Shown: in pieces, positions 5,605 through 56,610 of the stretch
Layout: each line of letters opens with the position of its first letter
Position numbering within the stretch: the first letter of the stretch is position 1
Origin: Patescibacteria group bacterium
GTDB lineage: Bacteria > Patescibacteriota > Saccharimonadia > CAILAD01 > BJGX01
NCBI GenBank assembly: GCA_030917065.1
Contig: JAUPVL010000018.1
Span: 2,568 to 66,567 of the forward strand
DNA: 64,000 nt
Direction: 5' to 3'
Made by a program: the position numbers and the translations under genes
The notes under the pieces: generated by a model
The model's input: the letters and a program-made list of their open reading frames with translations, nothing else
The model's database searches: none
Told to the model about the DNA's origin: nothing

Positions 5605-5985
5605 GTGCAGGATAATACCAAAAAACAGAAAAGTAAGTCCATCAAGATGATAGTAATTGGCTTTGCGGGTCCTATAGTATTACTTATAGTTTTACTTGTT
5701 ATTACATCAGCATTGAACTTTGTGATGAGCAATCAGGACGATACCGGTTCTCTAGATATATCTCGTAACATACTCAATGTTATTTTATTGTTCGTTGGTA
5801 TCATTACAGTGAGTGGTTTTGTATGGGGGCCAATACTTGGTATATTTGGCATCGTGAAATTGTCAAAACTATCTAGAGTCACTCAAGAGCCGGCTAGTCC
5901 ACCTGAATCAGATCAAGGCAATATTCAATCGACCGTAGAGACACAAGACAACAATAATCAAATAGGAGGGAACAATGTCACTTAA
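5605..5985 (+). CDS. hypothetical membrane protein (2 TM)
   Basis: Two hydrophobic helices. 3' end overlaps bcp by 11 nt. Confidence 0.4.
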   Translation: MQDNTKKQKSKSIKMIVIGFAGPIVLLIVLLVITSALNFVMSNQDDTGSLDISRNILNVILLFVGIITVSGFVWGPILGIFGIVKLSKLSRVTQEPASPPESDQGNIQSTVETQDNNNQIGGNNVT

Positions 5986-10773: not shown

Positions 10774-12129
10774 ATGGGAAAAACAAATCTTTCTATGGAG
10801 CAACTAGTCAGCTACGCCAAGCGGCGTGGTTTTGTGTTTCAATCTTCTGAAATATACGGAGGAATAGCTGGGTTTTACGATTTTGGGCCTTATGGTGCTG
10901 AGCTAGCCGATAACATCAAGTCATCTTGGTGGCGGCATTTTGTATACAACAATTTCAATGTAGTGGGTCTTAATTCCTCAATCATACAAAACTCCAAGCT
11001 ATGGCAAGCAAGTGGGCACGTCGACACTTTTGTGGACCCTATGGTAGATTGCCGTAGTTGTAAGCATAGATTTCGTGCCGACCACGTAGCCGAGATAGAT
11101 ACCAATAACCTTACTAAACTCAACGAAGCCTTAGCAGATAAGTCTTGCCCAAATTGTGGCGAAAAAAACAGCCTTACTGAGGCGCGAAATTTCCAGATGA
11201 TGTTTAAGACTTTTGTAGGTCCAGTAGAAGACGACGCAGCCACCACATATCTACGTCCTGAGACAGCCGGTGGTATATTTGCACAATACGACAACGTCCG
11301 AGAAACAACCCGCAAAAAACTGCCATTTGGCATAGCTCAGATAGGCAAGGCTTTTCGCAACGAGATTACTCCTGGTGATTTTATCTTTCGAGTGCGAGAA
11401 TTTACTCAGATGGAACTAGAGATATTTACCAAGCCTGAAGAGGCTGACAAGTGGTTTGAGTTCTGGAAAGATTATTGTCTGGAATGGGTCAAGGGTCTCG
11501 GTATATCACAGGACAATCTAAGATGGCATGAGCACTCTGAAGAAGAACGAGCACACTATGCTGCCGCAAGTACAGATATACAATACAAATTTCCTTTTGG
11601 ATTCAAAGAGCTATACGGAGTAGCCAATCGTACAGACCACGACCTCAAGAGTCATATGAAGGTGTCTGGTAAGGATTTGAATTACTTCGATGAAGAGACG
11701 GGCAAGAACATCGTACCGTATGTGATAGAGCCTTCAGTGGGCGTAGAAAGACTATTCATGGCTGTGATGCTCGATGCTTATCACGAAGAAGAAGTTGATG
11801 GTGAGAAACGAATAGTTATGAAATTTCATCCAGATCTAGCACCCGTCAAAGTAGCCGTACTACCACTGAGCAAGAAGACGGAACTCAGCGATGTCGCTAA
11901 AGACGTGTTTAAGTCTATCGCAGGGGAATACAACGTTGAGTACGACGAAACCCAATCTATCGGTAAGCGTTACCGTAGACAGGATGAGATCGGCACACCT
12001 TACTGTGTGACAGTAGATTTCGAGAGCCTAGAAGATCAAGCAGTAACGGTACGAGATAGAGATAGCATGAAACAAGAGAGAGTAAAGATGGGTGAGCTTA
12101 AGAGCTATTTGGAAGGAAAGCTTAAATGA
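10774..12129 (+). CDS. glyQS: glycyl-tRNA synthetase (dimeric class II, GlyQS type)
   Basis: N-terminus MEQLVSYAKRRGFVFQSSEIYGG…FYDFGPYG is diagnostic of alpha2 GlyRS. Class II motifs present. Confidence 0.9.
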   Translation: MGKTNLSMEQLVSYAKRRGFVFQSSEIYGGIAGFYDFGPYGAELADNIKSSWWRHFVYNNFNVVGLNSSIIQNSKLWQASGHVDTFVDPMVDCRSCKHRFRADHVAEIDTNNLTKLNEALADKSCPNCGEKNSLTEARNFQMMFKTFVGPVEDDAATTYLRPETAGGIFAQYDNVRETTRKKLPFGIAQIGKAFRNEITPGDFIFRVREFTQMELEIFTKPEEADKWFEFWKDYCLEWVKGLGISQDNLRWHEHSEEERAHYAAASTDIQYKFPFGFKELYGVANRTDHDLKSHMKVSGKDLNYFDEETGKNIVPYVIEPSVGVERLFMAVMLDAYHEEEVDGEKRIVMKFHPDLAPVKVAVLPLSKKTELSDVAKDVFKSIAGEYNVEYDETQSIGKRYRRQDEIGTPYCVTVDFESLEDQAVTVRDRDSMKQERVKMGELKSYLEGKLK

Positions 12130-13920: not shown

Positions 13921-14119
13921 CCAGACAGACGCGGCTTTATGTGATGGTCTTTTAAAGACAATTGCTCATTAATAACAAAATAAAAACAAAAAGATAAAAC
14001 AAAAATCAAAGTTAACTATTTGGCAGTCAGTACGCGTTTACTGGAGGGTGACGCGTAAAATAATACTCTTGTACATATATGCAACAAAAAACTCCACCTC
14101 ACAAACTATCTCTACAAAA

Positions 14120-14234: not shown

Positions 14235-15137
14235 ATGAACAGACACATACCAGTTTTATTGAGTGAGTTGTTAGAAATATTGAATCCTATAGAAGGTGAA
14301 GATTTTGCGGATTTAACGGCCGGATACGGCGGACATAGCGAAGCTTTGCTGGAAAAAGTAGGAGACAAAGGATCTGGATATTTATTTGACAAGGACTCTG
14401 AGGCTGTAAAATACCTCAGACACAAGTTTGAAACAAATAAAAATATCAATATCTATCAAACTGATTTTGCCGATATAGATTGGGATACAGACATACCTCA
14501 AGTCGACATTATAATAGCCGACATAGGTGTAAGCTCACCTCAGCTAGACGACACCGAAAGGGGGTTTAGCTTCAAGTCAGATGCACGATTGGACATGCGG
14601 ATGAATCAACAGCAAGAACTCGATGCTTATACAGTGATAAACACATATAGTGAGAAAGATCTGGCTGACATATTCTACAGATACGGCGAAGAACATAGCA
14701 GTAGACGGATAGCCAAGGCCATAGCTAATGCCCGTAAAAAAGCTCCTATTCAATCGACCGTCGAGCTCGCAGACTTGATAGCAGGCTCTACTCACAATAA
14801 AACCGGAAAAATTCATCCCGCTACGAAATGCTTTCAAGCCATCAGGATAGAGGTCAACCAAGAGCTAGATGCACTCGAGAAACTACTACAATCAGCTCCA
14901 AAGCATCTAAATGCAGGCGGCAGACTGGCTATCATTAGCTTCCATTCATTGGAAGATCGGATGGTCAAGCAGGCATTCAATAAACTATGCAAACCAGAAA
15001 AAGATGAGTTTGGTCAAAATGTGTCAAAACCAGAATACAAAAGTGTTACCAAAAAGCCCATAAAAGGCTCTGAATATGATAAATCAAATCCACGTGCGAG
15101 AAGTGCAAAACTTCGAGTCGTCGAGAAAATAAATTAA
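14235..15137 (+). CDS. rsmH: 16S rRNA (cytosine1402-N4)-methyltransferase RsmH
   Basis: HIPVLLSELLEIL…DLTAGYGGHSEALL is the RsmH/MraW signature. dcw context. Confidence 0.9.
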   Translation: MNRHIPVLLSELLEILNPIEGEDFADLTAGYGGHSEALLEKVGDKGSGYLFDKDSEAVKYLRHKFETNKNINIYQTDFADIDWDTDIPQVDIIIADIGVSSPQLDDTERGFSFKSDARLDMRMNQQQELDAYTVINTYSEKDLADIFYRYGEEHSSRRIAKAIANARKKAPIQSTVELADLIAGSTHNKTGKIHPATKCFQAIRIEVNQELDALEKLLQSAPKHLNAGGRLAIISFHSLEDRMVKQAFNKLCKPEKDEFGQNVSKPEYKSVTKKPIKGSEYDKSNPRARSAKLRVVEKIN

Positions 15138-15161
15138 ACAAAAACAAAAGGAGGGTTAGAA

Positions 15162-15233
15162 ATGACCTTAGCAATCAAAAACGAAAGTCCACGAGCTAGA
15201 AAGCTAAAAGTTCGCGTAATCAAAGTAAGATAA
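15162..15233 (+). CDS. tiny basic ORF (23 aa) with a strong SD
   Basis: aaaaggaggg lies 6 nt before the ATG. Product MTLAIKNESPRARKLKVRVIKVR. Sits between rsmH and ftsL. Confidence 0.2.
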   Translation: MTLAIKNESPRARKLKVRVIKVR

Positions 15234-19748: not shown

Positions 19749-20826
19749 CCTAGATAGAAGTGTAGAGATACTATATATTGGTAGCGGTAGTAAGCTCGAA
19801 AAGGAGCTTACTCAAAAATACGATCTCAACTATCAATCTATTTCAAGCGGTAAATTCCGTAGATACAGGCGTGGATGGAAGAAAGAGATTGCAGATATGC
19901 AGACTAACAAAAAGAATATTGCCGATGCAGTTCGTTTTACCAAAGGTTATTTTCAGGCGATGCGAATACTTCGTAAATTTAAACCCGATGTAGTTTTTAC
20001 TAAAGGAGGATATGTATCAGTGCCTGTTGGCCTGGCTGCATCTAGGCTGAAGATGCCATTGCTTATCCATGACTCAGATGCAATATTTGGAATGTCAACA
20101 AAAGTATTGGCGCCCAAGGCTAAGTTGATTGCTACCGGTTTTCCAAAAAATGTCTTTGCTGACTCAACATACAGCGATAAAATCATTTTTACCGGTAACC
20201 CAGTTCGTAAAGAACTATTAAGTGGAAGCCTGGCTCGAGCCCAAAAAATATTTCAATTTAGATCCCAAAAGCCGGTAGTTCTTGTATTTGCTGGTTCACA
20301 AGGAGCAACTGCAATAAATGAAATTGTGTTTGGAGGCCTGGATATTATCCTAAAGGATTACAATCTTATACACCACACCGGTTCAAACGACATAGAGCAG
20401 GCGAGAGTACTCGCTCACAAACTACCTGACAATCTAAGAGAATCTTATAGGCCTTTCGATTTTCTAAAGACCGAGCTTGCCGATGCGTTGTTTTATGCCG
20501 ACATTGTGATCGGAAGAGCTGGAGCCAATTCAATAGCTGAGATTGCTGCACATTCTAAGTCTGCAATATTAATTCCAAGTCCTTACTCGGCCAACAATCA
20601 TCAGCAAAGAAACGCTGAAGTGCTTGAACGGATGGGAGCGGCCAGGATAATCCAACAGGTAGACTTGAGTCCTATCCGGTTGATATCTGAGATAGACAAG
20701 ATACTCGCTGATCCAAAAGCCAAGAAATACTTGCAAAACTCGATACACGAACTTTGGATCTCTGACTCTGCATCAAGAATAGCGCGTCTTATACTCCACA
20801 CCAACAAGGACGGTGTAAATGTCTGA
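19672..20826 (+). CDS. murG: UDP-GlcNAc:undecaprenyl-PP-MurNAc-pentapeptide GlcNAc transferase MurG
   Basis: N-terminal MKIVVCGGGTAGHITP G-loop and GT28 fold. Confidence 0.9.
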   Translation: MKIVVCGGGTAGHITPILAIVDELRNLDRSVEILYIGSGSKLEKELTQKYDLNYQSISSGKFRRYRRGWKKEIADMQTNKKNIADAVRFTKGYFQAMRILRKFKPDVVFTKGGYVSVPVGLAASRLKMPLLIHDSDAIFGMSTKVLAPKAKLIATGFPKNVFADSTYSDKIIFTGNPVRKELLSGSLARAQKIFQFRSQKPVVLVFAGSQGATAINEIVFGGLDIILKDYNLIHHTGSNDIEQARVLAHKLPDNLRESYRPFDFLKTELADALFYADIVIGRAGANSIAEIAAHSKSAILIPSPYSANNHQQRNAEVLERMGAARIIQQVDLSPIRLISEIDKILADPKAKKYLQNSIHELWISDSASRIARLILHTNKDGVNV

Positions 20827-21637
20827 ACAAAGAGTGGTTAAGCTACGTGAAAAGATCAACAGCAACTCGACTGGTACATCTGCTCCAAAAAGTAAAAAGC
20901 CACAATTTAATTTGAAAAAACTTATCCGTCCAATCATTATAGTCGTCTTGGTCTTGATTGTATTGTACGCAGTCTTGGCATCTAGTTTGTTCAAGATAAA
21001 TAAGATAGAAATTGTGGGCAATCAGACTATCGATAGTGAGGATGTCAAATCACAGGTGAGCGCAATCATAACTGGATCAAGTATTAGTCAAAACATTATT
21101 TTCGTACCGTCTTCAGATATCGAGAAACAGTTAAAAAAAGACAATTATCAGGTAGCTGATGTAAAGATATCTAAGATTCCCTTTAGCACAATCAAGGTAA
21201 CAATAACCGAACAAAAACCGAGCATACTATGGAAATCTGGTAACAATCTTTCGATAATAACCGAGAATGGGAGAGGGTTTATAGGAGAGCCTAACGACGA
21301 ACTAAAAAGTAATCTACCAACGGTAGAGGATTTGTCGAATCTACCTGTAAAAGAAGGGGATAAGGTTGTATCACAAGAGTTCGTCAAATTTGTCAATGAT
21401 ATGTACACAACGCTACCACAGAACGGAGTCGAGATAGTTGGTGCTCAGATAGAAGAGACGACAACCGAGATTACAGTAATCACAAAAGATGGCTATAGGA
21501 TTAGGTTCGACACAACTCGGCCTTTTAGTGAGCAATTGTCTGATCTAAATGCAGTACTAGACAGCCTGAAGCAGCAGGGTAAAAAGCCAACTCAATATAT
21601 TGATCTCAGGATCAATGCCAAAGTATTTTATAAGTAG
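20819..21637 (+). CDS. ftsQ: cell division protein FtsQ/DivIB-like (POTRA)
   Basis: N-terminal TM anchor then a POTRA-like region (KINKIEIVGNQTIDSEDV). Position after murG. Confidence 0.55.
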   Translation: MSEQRVVKLREKINSNSTGTSAPKSKKPQFNLKKLIRPIIIVVLVLIVLYAVLASSLFKINKIEIVGNQTIDSEDVKSQVSAIITGSSISQNIIFVPSSDIEKQLKKDNYQVADVKISKIPFSTIKVTITEQKPSILWKSGNNLSIITENGRGFIGEPNDELKSNLPTVEDLSNLPVKEGDKVVSQEFVKFVNDMYTTLPQNGVEIVGAQIEETTTEITVITKDGYRIRFDTTRPFSEQLSDLNAVLDSLKQQGKKPTQYIDLRINAKVFYK

Positions 21638-22110
21638 GGCATATCCATAGAAGGTATAGAGAGGTATTAATTACAACAAAGCACGTGTGTGCTGTGAAAC
21701 ATAGGTTGTGGATAACTATTAGACGAGAAGACATGTGTAAATGCACAGACACAGGCCAATATCGTCTGTTAACTATATAAGTTCGGTTTTTGTTTATACT
21801 ACTTACACTGATATATAGCAGTATTTGCTGAAATCTCATGCTGTTCATTTGCCCATCCATGCTCGAAGCGTGAAAAAAGAGAAGATACGCAACAAATAAA
21901 TATGATTCATATAATGGTGATTTAGATGCTATATATACTTATATACGTAAAATATACATTGTGCGACATACTATATTTATCACTCCAGCTATCTATTTAT
22001 ACCTCTAATATATAGTTATTACGTTTCCTTTCTATGACTTTAGCGTAAACGCGATGTTGTAATGTGAATATCTCTGTAACACATTAGTGCTTTGTTAGCC
22101 TAGTTCGCTA

Positions 22111-28447: not shown

Positions 28448-29299
28448 CTAGTTTACTATCCATTGTCCCGCGCCAAGATTACGAATCTTACCTGTTATCT
28501 CCATCAGGCTCAATATATGCGCAAGCTGGGGTGCATCAAAGTTGCTATTATCTATGATAGTTTGCATGGTGTTGTGTCCTTCTTCAATCAAACCTATTAT
28601 CTGCGCTTCTTCTTGGCTAGCGGGTAAGGTTTTGGCTGTCTTTAAAGCACTGCTTTTCAGATCTAGCTCTGCAAGTACATCTGTAGCGTTTGTGACAAGC
28701 TTGGCCCCTAGTTTGATGAGATTATTTGGTCCTGCTGAACGAGGATTAGTAATATTGCCTGGCACAGCCATGACCATACGGTCATTATTAATTGCAAAAT
28801 TAGCAGTTATAAGACTACCGCTCTTGGCATCAGCCTCGGTAATGATGGTTGCAATACTTAGCCCAGCTATTATGCGATTACGAGCTGGAAAATTGAATCT
28901 TTGTGTACTCTGTCCTACTTCGTACTCACTTATTATCGCTCCGCCAGCACTCAATATAGATTTTGCAAGATTGCGATTTGCAGCTGGGTATATAGTATTT
29001 AGGGGTGTTCCTAGGACTGCCACTACCTTTCCTTTGGCATCTATGGCTGCCTTGTGCGCAATAGCATCTATACCGTATGCCAAGCCACTTACCAAGCATA
29101 TGCCGGCGCTAGCTAGGTCGTACGCTAGCCTATAAGTAATCTGTTCGCCATAACTAGATGGTCTGCGGGTGCCAACAATAGCTATCATCGGTAGATCTGG
29201 TATTTCACCCAAACAGTATAATTTCTTGGGCGGTGATGATATGGATCGCAATAACTCCGGAAAACTATTGCTTTTATATGTAATATCTTGTATATTCAT
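28448..29299 (-). CDS. dprA: DNA processing protein DprA (Smf)
   Basis: Rossmann-like DprA core IAIVGTRRPSSYGEQ…VSGLAYGIDAIAHKAA. Conserved dprA-topA linkage. Confidence 0.85.
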   Translation of the reverse strand: MNIQDITYKSNSFPELLRSISSPPKKLYCLGEIPDLPMIAIVGTRRPSSYGEQITYRLAYDLASAGICLVSGLAYGIDAIAHKAAIDAKGKVVAVLGTPLNTIYPAANRNLAKSILSAGGAIISEYEVGQSTQRFNFPARNRIIAGLSIATIITEADAKSGSLITANFAINNDRMVMAVPGNITNPRSAGPNNLIKLGAKLVTNATDVLAELDLKSSALKTAKTLPASQEEAQIIGLIEEGHNTMQTIIDNSNFDAPQLAHILSLMEITGKIRNLGAGQWIVN

Positions 29300-29355
29300 A
29301 TTCTCAGTTACTTCTGTAGAGCATAAGTGTTATATTATTAATCAGTTAAAAACTA

Positions 29356-29384
29356 TTGACAAATAAGCGTAACAGTGATACAAT
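29356..29384 (+). promoter_or_regulatory. perfect-consensus sigma-70 promoter TTGACA-N17-TACAAT (plus strand)
   Basis: ttgaca (29356-61), 17 nt, tacaat (29379-84). The minus strand reads TTGTCA-N17-AATAAT at the same place, a possible dprA promoter. Confidence 0.4.
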
Positions 29385-29390
29385 ACACGC

Positions 29391-29608
29391 GTAATTAAAA
29401 ATTCGATAGTACCCTATTAAAGGGAGTAATCTGCTAGTCGAGGTATAGTCTAAAACTCACCCTCCTTTTAGATTCTCGCTAGCAGATTACTCCCTTTCAT
29501 CACCACGGTCTAAATATTTATTTTGAGACTGACAAATCCCATGCCTTGGGGGTATGAAAGGGTGTAATAAGCAGATCTGTTCGATTCGTACGGCAGGTCT
29601 GCTTTTAT
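29391..29608 (+). ncRNA. candidate ~220-nt structured small RNA (class unassigned)
   Basis: Bounded by the promoter above and an intrinsic terminator. No ORF longer than 8 aa. Contains a 19-bp near-perfect inverted repeat aaagggagtaatctgctag(t)cgag … ctcgctagcagattactcccttt (29419-29497). Confidence 0.35.
29571..29608 (+). terminator. intrinsic terminator
   Basis: gcagatctg-(14-nt loop)-caggtctgc with one G-U wobble, followed by ttttat. Confidence 0.5.
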
Positions 29609-29674
29609 ATTACTAAGCAAATTTATATATTGCTAGCTTGTAGCGTTATTAAATTCAAAAAAAGAAGTTGCGAG

Positions 29675-30235
29675 TTACAATAGCGCTTTTGAATCTGCAG
29701 TCATGCCATCTTGTAGAGCATTTTCTATAGTGACGATAGTGTGTGAAATAATATCATTGAGCTTGTCTTGCTCTGTTTTTGAGAAATCTTGCAGTACAAA
29801 TTTATCCGCAGATATTGTTTGTAGTTCGGGATTTTTTATACCACATCTGATACGCACAAAATCTTCGCCGATATTTTCAATAATGTCTTTTAATCCATTG
29901 TGTCCGCCACTACCTCCGCCTACGCGGGTACGAATAATACCAAAATTCAAGTCCAGGTCATCTGAGACCACCCATATGTCATCATTTTCAAGCTTGTAAA
30001 AAGATTTGATTTTTTGGACTGCTTTGCCACTATCGTTCATGTAGGTTTGTGGTTTGGCTAGTACAACAGTTTGTTTATCGCGCATCGTTACGAGTAATTC
30101 ACTTTTGAGTCTTTGGTGTGATTGAAAATGCACCCCCCATGTTTCTGCTAGCTGATCTATCACCATAGAACCTAGGTTGTGGCGATTTTTTATGTACTGC
30201 TCTGTTGGATTACCAAGACCTATAATGAGTTTCAT
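29675..30235 (-). CDS. pth: peptidyl-tRNA hydrolase
   Basis: MKLIIGLGNPTEQYIKNRHNLG signature. Confidence 0.9.
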   Translation of the reverse strand: MKLIIGLGNPTEQYIKNRHNLGSMVIDQLAETWGVHFQSHQRLKSELLVTMRDKQTVVLAKPQTYMNDSGKAVQKIKSFYKLENDDIWVVSDDLDLNFGIIRTRVGGGSGGHNGLKDIIENIGEDFVRIRCGIKNPELQTISADKFVLQDFSKTEQDKLNDIISHTIVTIENALQDGMTADSKALL

Positions 30236-41592: not shown

Positions 41593-41656
41593 TTGACGTA
41601 ATACATAATCACATATATAGTGTAATATAGCGTAACATAAGCACTATATATAGCGC
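41593..41656 (+). promoter_or_regulatory. nrdAB promoter with two NrdR-box-like 16-bp palindromes
   Basis: -35 ttgacg (41593-98), 17 bp, tatagt (41616-21). Palindromes tcacatatatagtgta (41609-24) and gcactatatatagcgc (41641-56) are centred 32 bp apart. The first overlaps the -10. Confidence 0.45.
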
Positions 41657-41689
41657 TTAAAAACAACAATAAAAGGAGGGTTAGTTTAA

Positions 41690-44425
41690 ATGGCATTTAC
41701 AAATATCAAGAAACGCAATGGTCAAATCGTAGAGTTTGAACCTAAAAGGATTGAGATAGCAATTCAGAAAGCTTCAGATTCGGCTGATAACGAAATACCT
41801 CATCAGACTGTTGTAGAGTTGGTAGAAAATGTCATATCTCACCTAGAATCTCTCAATGGAGACAATTTGCCTGACGTAGAATCTATCCAGGACCTGGTCG
41901 AGCAGGAGTTGATGCGCGCAGATTATTATAAGACCGCAAGAAGCTACATTCTATATCGTGAGCGTCATAAAGAACTACGAGAATTTGAATCAAACAGAGA
42001 TGCTGAAAAACTTGAGCATAATGAACTAAAGGTAACTCTACCCGATGGCAGCATTGATTACTTTAGCTATACTCGGCTTATTAAAGATCTCGTAACTGCA
42101 GCCGAAGGTATTGAATCATCTATCGATATCGACGAGCTCGCCCAGATTGCCAAAAGCAACTTGTACGACGGCATCACTCTAGAGGAATTACAGGAAGCCC
42201 TAGTGCTTGCTGCAAAAAGCTGCATAGAAAAAGATCACGCCTACTCTACTCTAGCAGCTCGTTTGCTACTCAAAAAGATTTACCGAGAAGTAATAGGTAC
42301 CGATAAGCAAGACAAATTGACTGAAGCCTACAAGGAAACATTTAGGTCATTTATCAAATCAGCCGTGAAGACCAAGCGCCTAGATAGCCGACTTCTGGAA
42401 TTTGATCTAGATAAACTTGCTGATCATATCGATCCCGCCAGAGACGGACTGTTTGATTATATGGGTCTTGACATGCTTCATGATAGGTACTTCATTCAAA
42501 ACGAAGGTCGCGGTGTAAGACTAGAAACCCCTCAAATACTATGGATGAGAATAGCCATGGGACTAGCAGTGCAGGAGAAAAAAACTGAACGTGAAAAATG
42601 GGCAAAAAAATTCTACGATACTCTTTCAACCCTCCGCTACGTTCCATCTACACCCACATTGTTTCACTCCGGTACAACATTCGCTCAGCTAAGCTCTTGT
42701 TTTCTAAATACAGTTGAAGACGACCTGAAGCACATATTTAAGGTATATCTAGACACTGCTCTAATGAGTAAGTTTTCGGGTGGTATAGCTACAGACTGGA
42801 CCAATATTCGCTCTACAGGCTCGATGATCAAGGCAGTCAATATACCTTCACAAGGGGTCATACCCTTTCTAAAGATAGCCAACGACTGCACTGTTGCAAT
42901 CAGCAGATCCGGCAAGCGCAAAGGTGCTACGTGTGTGTATCTTGAGACTTGGCACATGGATATTGAAGATTTCTTAGAACTGCGGAAAAACACGGGTGAT
43001 GAGAGACGTAGAACTCATGATATGAATACCGCAAACTGGATACCCGATCTTTTTATGAAGCGCGTGTTAAATGATGAACAGTGGACTCTTTTTTCGCCCA
43101 ATGAAGTTCCTGAGCTTCACCATACATACGGTCAAGAATTTGAGAAGAAATACGTGGAATATGAAAAAATGGCAGACGAAGGCAAGCTAGAGCAATTCAA
43201 AAGGATTCCGGCATTACAGCTCTGGAGAAAAATGCTCACTATGCTATTTGAGACTGGTCATCCATGGATCAACTTCAAAGACGCTTGCAATGTTCGTTCT
43301 CCCCAGGATCATGCCGGAGTTATACACAATTCAAACTTATGTACAGAGATCACACTCAACAACTCTGCCGAAGAAACCGCTGTTTGCAATCTAGGCTCAG
43401 TGAATCTAGCGCGTCATATCACTGGCAAGAAACTAGACCGCGATATGGTGGCCGATACCGTGACAATAGGCATGAGAATGCTAGACAACGTCATTGATAT
43501 CAATTACTACACCACAGATGAATGTAAGGTATCAAATATGCGACATAGGCCAGTTGGACTAGGTATCATGGGCTTTCAAGACGCATTGTACATGCTAGAT
43601 ATTGCCTTCAATTCTGAAAAAGCCGTGTCTTTTGGTGATGAAAGTATGGAACTAGTTAGTTACTATGCAATACTCGGTAGCAGTCAATTGGCCAAAGAAC
43701 GTGGCGCCTACAAGTCTTACAAGGGATCTAAGTGGGATCGTGGTATATTCCCAGTAGATACACTGGATCTACTTGAAAAAGAACGCGGCATTAAGATAGA
43801 TGTCAAACGTCGAGGTAAGCTAGATTGGAAACCTGTTCGTGCTCACGTCAAAAAACACGGTATGCGAAATAGCAATACTATGGCTATTGCTCCTACGGCA
43901 TCTATTTCGAATATATCAGGATGTTACCCATGTATCGAGCCTATCTACAAAAATCTTTATGTCAAGTCAAACATGAGTGGTGACTTCACTATTATTAATT
44001 CTTATATGATAGACGATCTAAAGAAAAACAACCTATGGAACGACGAAATAATGCAAAAAATAAAATTCCATGATGGCTCTGTTCAGAAGATTACTGAAAT
44101 ACCCGCAGAGTTAAGAGCAAAATATCAAGAAGTATTTGAGATAGATGCCGAATGGCTAGTCAAAATAGCAGCCCACCGCGGCAAGTGGATAGATCAAAGC
44201 CAGAGCCTAAATATATTTGTCCAAGGAGTATCAGGCAAAAAACTATCTGACATATATACCTACGCCTGGAAGATGGGCCTCAAGACCACCTACTATCTAA
44301 GATCACTTGCAGCCAGCCAAGTAGAAAAGTCTACCGTTGATACTGCCGAGTTTGGAAATACTCACAAGCGTGAATACGCCACAGTGTCTGAAATGGCGCC
44401 CAAGGCAGATGATGCCAAAGCTTAA
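41690..44425 (+). CDS. nrdA: ribonucleoside-diphosphate reductase alpha subunit with N-terminal ATP cone
   Basis: ATP-cone (KKRNGQIVEFEPKRIEIAI), catalytic core with the C-terminal Cys pair. Paired with nrdB. Confidence 0.9.
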   Translation: MAFTNIKKRNGQIVEFEPKRIEIAIQKASDSADNEIPHQTVVELVENVISHLESLNGDNLPDVESIQDLVEQELMRADYYKTARSYILYRERHKELREFESNRDAEKLEHNELKVTLPDGSIDYFSYTRLIKDLVTAAEGIESSIDIDELAQIAKSNLYDGITLEELQEALVLAAKSCIEKDHAYSTLAARLLLKKIYREVIGTDKQDKLTEAYKETFRSFIKSAVKTKRLDSRLLEFDLDKLADHIDPARDGLFDYMGLDMLHDRYFIQNEGRGVRLETPQILWMRIAMGLAVQEKKTEREKWAKKFYDTLSTLRYVPSTPTLFHSGTTFAQLSSCFLNTVEDDLKHIFKVYLDTALMSKFSGGIATDWTNIRSTGSMIKAVNIPSQGVIPFLKIANDCTVAISRSGKRKGATCVYLETWHMDIEDFLELRKNTGDERRRTHDMNTANWIPDLFMKRVLNDEQWTLFSPNEVPELHHTYGQEFEKKYVEYEKMADEGKLEQFKRIPALQLWRKMLTMLFETGHPWINFKDACNVRSPQDHAGVIHNSNLCTEITLNNSAEETAVCNLGSVNLARHITGKKLDRDMVADTVTIGMRMLDNVIDINYYTTDECKVSNMRHRPVGLGIMGFQDALYMLDIAFNSEKAVSFGDESMELVSYYAILGSSQLAKERGAYKSYKGSKWDRGIFPVDTLDLLEKERGIKIDVKRRGKLDWKPVRAHVKKHGMRNSNTMAIAPTASISNISGCYPCIEPIYKNLYVKSNMSGDFTIINSYMIDDLKKNNLWNDEIMQKIKFHDGSVQKITEIPAELRAKYQEVFEIDAEWLVKIAAHRGKWIDQSQSLNIFVQGVSGKKLSDIYTYAWKMGLKTTYYLRSLAASQVEKSTVDTAEFGNTHKREYATVSEMAPKADDAKA

Positions 44426-56525: not shown

Positions 56526-56610
56526 GCCGCTGTGGTGGAACTGGTAGACACGCACGACTCAAAATCGTGTGTCTTACGACATGTCGGTTCGAGTCCGACC
56601 AGCGGCACCA
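56526..56610 (+). tRNA. tRNA-Leu (anticodon CAA), CCA encoded
   Basis: Cloverleaf by eye: acceptor gccgctg/cagcggc, anticodon stem cacga/tcgtg with loop cTCAAaa, long variable arm, T-arm ggttcgagtcc, 3' ACCA. Confidence 0.85.

Follow-up and report, generated by a model that had tools for sequence, protein, structure and literature searches.

Base-pairing small RNAs (sRNAs) that use C-rich loops are known from Gram-positive bacteria, among them RsaE/RoxS of Firmicutes, which targets central metabolism, and 6C RNA of Actinobacteria, which targets DNA replication and cell division. RNA regulation of nrd genes is known in cis, from the 2'-deoxyguanosine riboswitch and the B12 riboswitch upstream of such genes, and Listeria has trans-acting sRNAs that are derived from or controlled by riboswitches (SreA/SreB and EutX/Rli55). 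Saccharibacteria (TM7) and other bacteria of the candidate phyla radiation have tiny genomes and live on other bacteria, and to our knowledge almost no regulatory RNAs have been described for the radiation. Here we describe a locus in a 64-kb stretch of Saccharibacteria DNA, referred to below at its full length as the window, in which the 375 bp between dprA (28448-29299, minus strand) and pth (29675-30235, minus strand) very probably contain a real gene for a structured RNA of ~217 nucleotides (nt), encoded on the plus strand (~29391-29607) and thus opposite to both neighbors.

By analogy of mechanism with the C-rich-loop sRNAs, we rate this RNA as a new family of trans-acting base-pairing sRNA that is absent from Rfam. 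Like RsaE/RoxS and 6C, it is encoded separately, with a promoter and an intrinsic terminator of its own, and it has a conserved unpaired C-rich loop motif that is predicted here to pair with a G-rich Shine-Dalgarno region and block translation. The likeness is one of functional analogy only: no homology of sequence or structure was detected (no Rfam match even at E <= 10), and the Saccharibacteria RNA is about twice as long, carries one seed loop on a helix of ~30 bp where the others have two or three short C-rich hairpins, and differs from them in its covarying three-way junction and predicted bistable helix pair, in its predicted target (nrdAB) and in its host lineage, the candidate phyla radiation. 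With 6S RNA (SsrS) it shares size (~180-220 nt), a strong promoter, a stand-alone position and a high degree of structure. However, 6S RNA is a rod with a central bubble, whereas this RNA is a local hairpin followed by a three-way junction, with its 5' and 3' halves unpaired with each other in the consensus fold; together with the failure of any 6S or 6S-like model to match in the window or in 12 homologous loci, this led us to drop the 6S-like option that a preliminary description of the locus had raised. The nrd riboswitches and NrdR act on the same pathway, and in these genomes nrdA is preceded by NrdR boxes; in contrast to the riboswitches, the RNA lies 12-45 kb from nrdAB, is proposed to act as a trans antisense and matches no riboswitch of Rfam. 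The resemblance to SreA/SreB and EutX/Rli55 is speculative and consists of a structured, possibly sensing domain and trans pairing in one terminated transcript with mutually exclusive helices, but here the competing helices spare the terminator, and no aptamer class was identified.

Comparative evidence strongly supports the reading of the locus as a stand-alone gene that has its own promoter and terminator and would be neither a leader nor a 3' untranslated region, as the preliminary description had argued from the orientation of the flanking genes, both of which do lie on the opposite strand. The same description had proposed an independent structured plus-strand sRNA of ~220 nt, and the promoter, the terminator, a position kept in ~30 loci and heavy covariation all agree with it. 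The parts of the gene are as follows.

29356..29384, plus strand: sigma-70-type promoter, TTGACA-17 nt-TG-n-TACAAT; the full pattern TTGACA-N17-TGnTAnnAT (perfect -35, 17-nt spacer, extended -10) in 23 of 24 homologs
29391..29418, plus strand: 5' leader from a predicted start site, opening with a conserved CGUA
29419..29497, plus strand: P2, a long hairpin (~30 bp); double (compensatory) changes at 12 of 18 lower-stem pairs
29456..29465, plus strand: apical loop of P2, CUCACCCUCC, 10 nt, the proposed seed; unpaired in the minimum-energy and consensus folds
29493..29504, plus strand: 5' strand of P5 (CCUUUCAU-C-ACC); its first 5 nt (29493-97) double as the 3' end of the P2 lower stem
29506..29531, plus strand: P3, hairpin CGGUCU/AGACUG (29506-11/29526-31) with an AU-rich loop; 4 of 6 pairs double-changed, 98.5% of alignment cells paired
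29532..29537, plus strand: J3/4, A-rich junction strand ACAAAU, conserved as (A)CAAAAU
29538..29550, plus strand: P4, short hairpin CCCA/UGGG (29538-41/29547-50), with weaker support (79.5% paired)
29551..29564, plus strand: 3' strand of P5, GGU-AUGAAAGG(GUG), 99.3% paired; resembles the nrdA ribosome-binding site
29570..29609, plus strand: intrinsic terminator, a 12-bp stem and then UUUUAUAUU; hairpin and T-run in all homologs

The exact TTGACA-N17-TACAAT promoter that had been reported was confirmed (-35 at 29356-29361, -10 at 29379-29384, extended -10 TG at 29376-77) and ranks first, with 11/12 plus the TG, among the 27 promoter-like sites between 27000 and 32000. The terminator was equally apparent, with AGCAGAUCUGUU (29570-81) pairing with GGCAGGUCUGCU (29592-603), UUUU following and three G·U pairs forming on the plus strand only; a simple terminator scanner overlooked it because its loop is longer than 8 nt. 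A G·U-rich hairpin and a T-run end all copies, with a stem sequence that varies by lineage, and the sense strand is the more stable one in 21 of 24 whole RNAs and in 22 of 24 terminators. The gap, described earlier as 375 bp long and free of open reading frames (ORFs), has that length but contains mechanical ORFs of 36 amino acids on the minus strand and of 65 amino acids overlapping dprA. Coding was ruled out because loop lengths vary by 1-2 nt among homologs: these indels break the frame of the 36-amino-acid ORF, and the frames that open with ATG-GAA-AGG and with ATGAAAGGGTGT are unconserved, the ATG being ATT in several lineages. A cis-antisense RNA or type I antitoxin was rejected on the grounds that the RNA lies wholly inside the gap, that a conserved small ORF is absent and, again, that the homologs have these indels. 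Also rejected was a repeat element or miniature inverted-repeat transposable element, the arm sequence being single-copy in the 64 kb even with up to three mismatches.

All related Saccharibacteria loci that had enough flank (~30) contain the RNA, seven of them retrieved via DprA alone. In two loci anchored on Pth, L001 (Pth 65% identical) and L002 (37%), the element lies between pth and dprA and compensatory changes can be seen by eye. A scan of metagenomes with the loop motif gave 20 true homologs and four chance matches; such a scan fixes the loop by construction, and extra loci were therefore fetched via DprA homologs with 58-64% identity. A covariance model of the 150-nt core, R1, built from seven close relatives, recognized the RNA with 75-183 bits wherever the flank sufficed, in each case on the opposite strand to dprA and pth, and gave a single copy in the window. 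The gene order, topA<-dprA<-[RNA->]<-pth<-der<-PBP, is constant. The loop CUCACCCUCC is identical in all 25 aligned homologs, including six protein-anchored loci that were not selected for the loop, and the stem beside it shows one A->U change in three DprA-derived copies. A search of viral contigs for the RNA gave no match, and a phage origin was rejected on that basis.

The predicted fold, consisting of P2 and a three-way junction of P5, P3 and P4, is shown by covariation. In the window copy the plus strand folds with -81.8 kcal/mol (z = -9.0) and the minus strand with -65.9 kcal/mol (z = -4.95). The 19-bp hairpin that had been noted at 29419-29497 is in fact perfect in its lower stem (inverted repeat 29419-29437/29479-29497, chance expectation 0.01) and unique in the window; P2 continues above it with CGAG/CUCG (29439-42/29475-78) and then with the apical stem UCUAAAA/UUUUAGA (29449-55/29466-72), and its CUGCU/AGCAG box is invariant. 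P5 (29493-29504 with 29551-29561) directly follows P2 and closes the junction with P3 and P4, and an 8-nt linker then leads to the terminator. The G-rich segment of the preliminary description is present and can now be identified as the 3' strand of P4 and P5; in one lineage CUC/GAG replaces CCC/GGG in P4. A pyrimidine stretch of the leader, ACCCU (29411-15), can pair with AGGGU (29559-63) or AGGG (29421-24). The closing helix 29411-15/29559-63 is part of the minimum-energy fold of the window copy, yet several lineages lack the 5' stretch or have a different one, and we do not claim this helix.

Covariation was assessed in A4, a model-based alignment of 25 sequences (23 distinct), which was used instead of the MAFFT alignment A1, where P3, the apical stem and the terminator were misaligned between lineages. 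In A4, 95.4% of the cells were paired versus 38-52% when one partner was slid by 1-3 columns, 24 of the 46 base pairs had changed on both sides, and the observed covariation score was reached by none of 500 shuffles. Fitting the alignment to the model favors the structure of the model; however, P2 and P5, with 14 compensatory pairs, had emerged before that and independently when RNAalifold was applied to a plain MAFFT alignment.

The strand CCCUUU(C/A) at 29492-98 has two possible partners, (U)AAAGG at 29418-23, which extends P2, and GAAAGG at 29556-61, which forms the outer part of P5. The P2 extension is the base of the perfect 19-bp stem; 87% of its cells are paired, and the shared column shows swaps from U-A to G-C. 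For outer P5 the paired share is 99.3%, and in 11 of the 23 sequences C-G has given way to A-U. When the two conformers were forced, they differed by 0.07 ± 2.4 kcal/mol over the 25 homologs. With both competing pairings maintained and predicted isoenergetic, the RNA is probably two-state, and modeling predicts it to be bistable in every lineage, with both helices kept by evolution.

The complement of the loop, GGAGGGUGAG, is a Shine-Dalgarno sequence with an unusual extension, and two sites in the window are candidate targets.

41670..41692, plus strand: proposed target, the nrdA ribosome-binding site and start codon (ORF 41690-44425), UAAAAGGAGGGUUAGUUUAA; 18 of 20 positions complementary to the hairpin apex
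15146..15164, plus strand: second candidate target, AAAAGGAGGGUUAG, 2 nt before the ATG at 15162; 13 of 14 positions complementary to the loop and its 3' stem

When the loop was scored against the 1582 candidate start regions of the window, that of nrdA was by far the best, at -20.9 kcal/mol (mean -5.8, standard deviation 3.0). The ORF at 41690 encodes 911 amino acids of a class I ribonucleotide reductase large subunit (ATP-cone, PF00317, PF02867), with the small-subunit gene downstream and NrdR boxes upstream. Leaders of nrdA were compared from five other Saccharibacteria (NrdA identity 66-74%); the assembly of one of these also contains sRNA locus L027. Directly over the Shine-Dalgarno position, each of the five has GGAGGGUGA, GGAGGGUGAG or GGAGGGUGU; the perfect complement of the loop is GGAGGGUGA(G). 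GGAGGGUG(A) is likewise present there in all five, and the NrdR box is the only other conserved part of the leaders. Across 244 kb of Saccharibacteria DNA there are nine copies of GGAGGGTG, not counting the sRNA gene; six of the nine belong to nrdA leaders, where they lie at the ribosome-binding site or a little way upstream. Duplexes predicted between sRNA and nrdA from the same or closely matching assemblies comprise 10-18 bp, with -20.5 to -26.5 kcal/mol. The loop resembles an anti-Shine-Dalgarno sequence with one C more, and the Saccharibacteria 16S rRNA tail, of which a single example was available, reads GGAUUACCUCCUUU (PMC6107228, supplementary file 7). Because this is the sequence of the tail, the extra G and the UGAG extension of the nrdA site fit the sRNA loop and not the ribosome. 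A distance of 12 kb separates the sRNA and nrdA genes in the window, and one of ~45 kb on contig CAZRJR010000001.1; any action on nrdA would therefore be in trans.

The explanation that we favor, although we put its chances at about even, is a Saccharibacteria-specific, trans-acting base-pairing sRNA that regulates nrdAB by pairing with the ribosome-binding site. The gene has the properties of a trans-encoded sRNA, namely its own promoter and Rho-independent terminator without overlap with a gene, a conserved single-stranded seed (CUCACCCUCC) and complementarity to a target that is conserved across genomes. The complementarity of loop and nrdA site is shown, as is its conservation; we infer that the RNA is transcribed, that it regulates nrdAB and in which direction. 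As judged from the conserved signals, a strong, constitutive-looking promoter would drive the RNA and the intrinsic terminator would end it. P2 would display the 10-nt loop single-stranded, and the loop would pair with GGAGGGUGA(G) at the ribosome-binding site of the nrdAB mRNA, in a duplex that would outcompete the 16S rRNA tail and block the initiation of translation. The sRNA would thus form a post-transcriptional layer on top of control through the NrdR boxes, and the two-state junction could tune its activity or stability.

Several points weigh against this explanation. The start site and the 3' end of the RNA are predictions, and the nrdA site of the window itself, GGAGGGUUAG, has one U·C mismatch to the loop. 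The target is a purine-rich Shine-Dalgarno sequence, and any such site pairs with C/U-rich loops; furthermore, the six nrdA leaders are phylogenetically related and do not amount to six independent observations. In lineages with CACCCUCC in the 16S tail (...CUCACCCUCCUUU) the site would merely be a strong Shine-Dalgarno sequence, and one tail was sampled. A seed hairpin alone, moreover, would need no conserved three-way junction of ~70 nt, which leaves the biology partly unexplained. The junction is given a role if the RNA is a sensor, that is, a trans regulator of ribonucleotide reductase with a seed gated by the bistable junction, a version that we regard as unlikely. In it a ligand (e.g., a nucleotide or deoxynucleotide) or a protein would stabilize P5 and sequester its purine-rich 3' strand. 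That strand, AUGAAAGGGUG (AUUAGAGGGUG in other lineages), resembles the nrdA site, and we speculate that, once released, it could pair with the seed loop and mask it; the likeness is treated as speculation because it is partly forced by the pairing with CCCUUU. With regard to a ligand-binding junction of the riboswitch kind, a conserved three-way junction and two covarying, isoenergetic competing helices are present, and no ligand, known aptamer class or link to the terminator was found.

A role outside nrdAB regulation was also considered. The RNA could be a general anti-Shine-Dalgarno mimic or a protein-binding housekeeping RNA, with loop and junction binding a ribosome-associated or RNA-binding protein or titrating Shine-Dalgarno mRNAs generally, and nrdA would then be matched incidentally, as one of few strong Shine-Dalgarno sequences in a leaderless-rich genome. 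In keeping with this, 8 nt are common to the loop and the 16S tail (CCUCCUUU), many genes of the window look leaderless, so that there are few competing strong sites, the large covarying junction, together with the invariant CUGCU/AGCAG box, is more reminiscent of a protein scaffold than of the body of a typical sRNA, and the neighboring pth and der are genes of translation and ribosome assembly. However, the nrdA site is conserved past GGAGG into GUGA(G), which fits the loop and not the tail, whereas other GGAGG sites before genes take A, C or U next without preference, and the adjoining genes encode no candidate partner protein; we consider this explanation improbable, if less so than the sensor. 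Exact mimicry of the tail was rejected, CCUCCUUU being all that GGAUUACCUCCUUU and the loop have in common, and GGAGGG as a general form of the Shine-Dalgarno sequence was rejected as well, since the sites are too few and G is not preferred after GGAGG. About as unlikely as the sensor is local action, in which transcriptional interference on dprA or pth would be the function and the transcript mainly a by-product or effector: RNA polymerase would bind either the sRNA or the dprA promoter, and read-through would be antisense to pth-der. The -35 of a promoter-like site for dprA on the minus strand (TTGTCA-N17-AATAAT, 29362-29334) does overlap the sRNA -35 back to back at 29356-29362, and the RNA is always divergent from dprA and convergent with pth over deep divergence, as in L002. 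Yet promoter interference alone would not call for the 24 covarying pairs of a 150-nt core, nor for its invariant loop, the conserved strong terminator disfavors read-through into pth, other genes intervene between the RNA and pth in several loci, and the fixed order may reflect the general synteny of small genomes. Least credible, and very improbable, is that there is no plus-strand RNA at all and that the conserved features are those of the DNA or the minus strand, such as a pth terminator, a dprA promoter or operator, or a repeat element; the preliminary description had named the pth terminator plus the dprA promoter, read on the minus strand, as a possible refutation. An A-rich 5' flank means that the sRNA terminator might act weakly in both directions and also stop pth transcription, and in one lineage a stem position that is C·A in plus-strand RNA would be G·U in minus-strand RNA. 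Against these stand the excess of G·U pairs that favor the sense strand in the counts given above, the stems with G·U pairs on the plus strand only, the T-run on the plus strand, the conserved perfect plus-strand promoter, the single occurrence of the arm sequence in the window, and P3 and P5, which are far apart, asymmetric and covarying.

Searches for known classes agreed with the earlier statement that no tmRNA, signal recognition particle (SRP), RNase P or riboswitch signature could be recognized. Rfam 15 at the gathering score gave no family, 6S included, at the locus or in the 12 homologous loci, and at E <= 10 across 29250-29720 it gave only chance matches of microRNA precursors to the hairpin. 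ARAGORN found no tmRNA in the window; its one match there, a tRNA-Leu (CAA) at 56526-56610 on the plus strand, is the sole match of either program in the 64 kb. With family models and ARAGORN negative in the region, tmRNA, SRP RNA and RNase P RNA were rejected. A cis-regulatory leader or riboswitch was rejected as well, since the gene after the terminator is the convergent pth in the window and in nearly all homologs, the exception being L015. In the literature on sRNAs of Saccharibacteria and Patescibacteria no description of the RNA was found in our library, which is incomplete.

The deep conservation and strong promoter in a tiny genome make it likely that the RNA is important. Saccharibacteria lack de novo nucleotide synthesis, and the RNA gene adjoins the DNA-uptake gene dprA; if ribonucleotide reductase is controlled, the RNA would govern the only route to deoxynucleoside triphosphates (dNTPs) in organisms that scavenge nucleotides and DNA. 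Should the sensor version be true, this would be the first case of a riboswitch-like RNA controlling the supply of dNTPs in trans, and no functional regulatory RNA would have been defined earlier in the candidate phyla radiation. The target hypothesis is concrete and testable, in a group that has only recently become open to genetics, and the predicted bistable junction lends itself well to structure probing. The RNA also provides a new family for the annotation of Saccharibacteria genomes.

Around the sRNA promoter, further features were observed. With overlapping -35s, the sRNA and dprA promoters may compete for RNA polymerase. Repeats containing ATAAG lie on either side of the sRNA -35, as a direct repeat in the window (29313-29320 and 29363-29370) and as an 11/12 inverted repeat (ACATAAGTGGTA ... 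TACCGCTTATGT) in the lineage of L003, L008 and L022. A similar CATAAGC adjoins the nrdA NrdR box, and the dprA, sRNA and nrd promoters may share an operator; an NrdR box in the sRNA promoter itself was rejected, the likeness by eye being loose (ATAAG in common). Downstream, the stretch from the sRNA terminator to the pth stop codon contains the motif TTGCTAGC(W)TGTAGCG(K)TAT (29630-29649, plus strand), with the palindrome GCTAGC inside it; the motif is kept in the lineage of the window (L001, L004, L005, L013, L019 and L021) and may be the pth 3' end or a protein-binding site. Extra genes lie between the RNA and pth in L004, L014, L020, L021 and L034, and L015 is the sole homologous locus with a same-strand ORF (172 amino acids; 638-1156 in RNA orientation) directly after the sRNA terminator.

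Upstream of nrdA there are two NrdR-box-like palindromes, CACATATATAGTG and GCACTATATATAGCG (41600-41660 of the window, plus strand; ~500-580 in L035-L039), of which GCACTATATATAGCG is the sole strongly conserved island of the leader besides the Shine-Dalgarno extension. The nrdA leader of L039 (525-600) has two GGAGGGTG sites, with an ATG after the upstream one that may belong to an upstream ORF or be an alternative start. The second candidate target precedes a 23-codon ORF (MTLAIKNESPRARKLKVRVIKVR; 15146-15233, plus strand) between rsmH (14235-15137) and an ftsL-like ORF; the sequence before it, AAAAGGAGGGTTAG, is identical to a 14-mer at the nrdA ribosome-binding site, and the ORF may represent either another target of the sRNA or a small protein missed by annotation. 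A hairpin at 14030-14056 on the plus strand, ACGCGT-TTACTGGAGGGTG-ACGCGT, has GGAGGGTG in its loop, lies away from start codons and could be a terminator or a decoy site.

In many genes of the window a TATAAT-like hexamer lies ~6-10 nt before the ATG, without a Shine-Dalgarno sequence (e.g., at the ATGs at 10774, 37204 and 60416 on the plus strand, and at several minus-strand genes), which suggests that leaderless mRNAs are widespread across the window. If leaderless genes are common, the strong Shine-Dalgarno sites stand out, these being at nrdA, at the small ORF at 15162 and at the gene at 5975. At ~20000-22000 the cumulative GC skew peaks, the AT skew changes sign and gene orientation switches from mostly plus to mostly minus, and this region may mark a replication terminus or origin.

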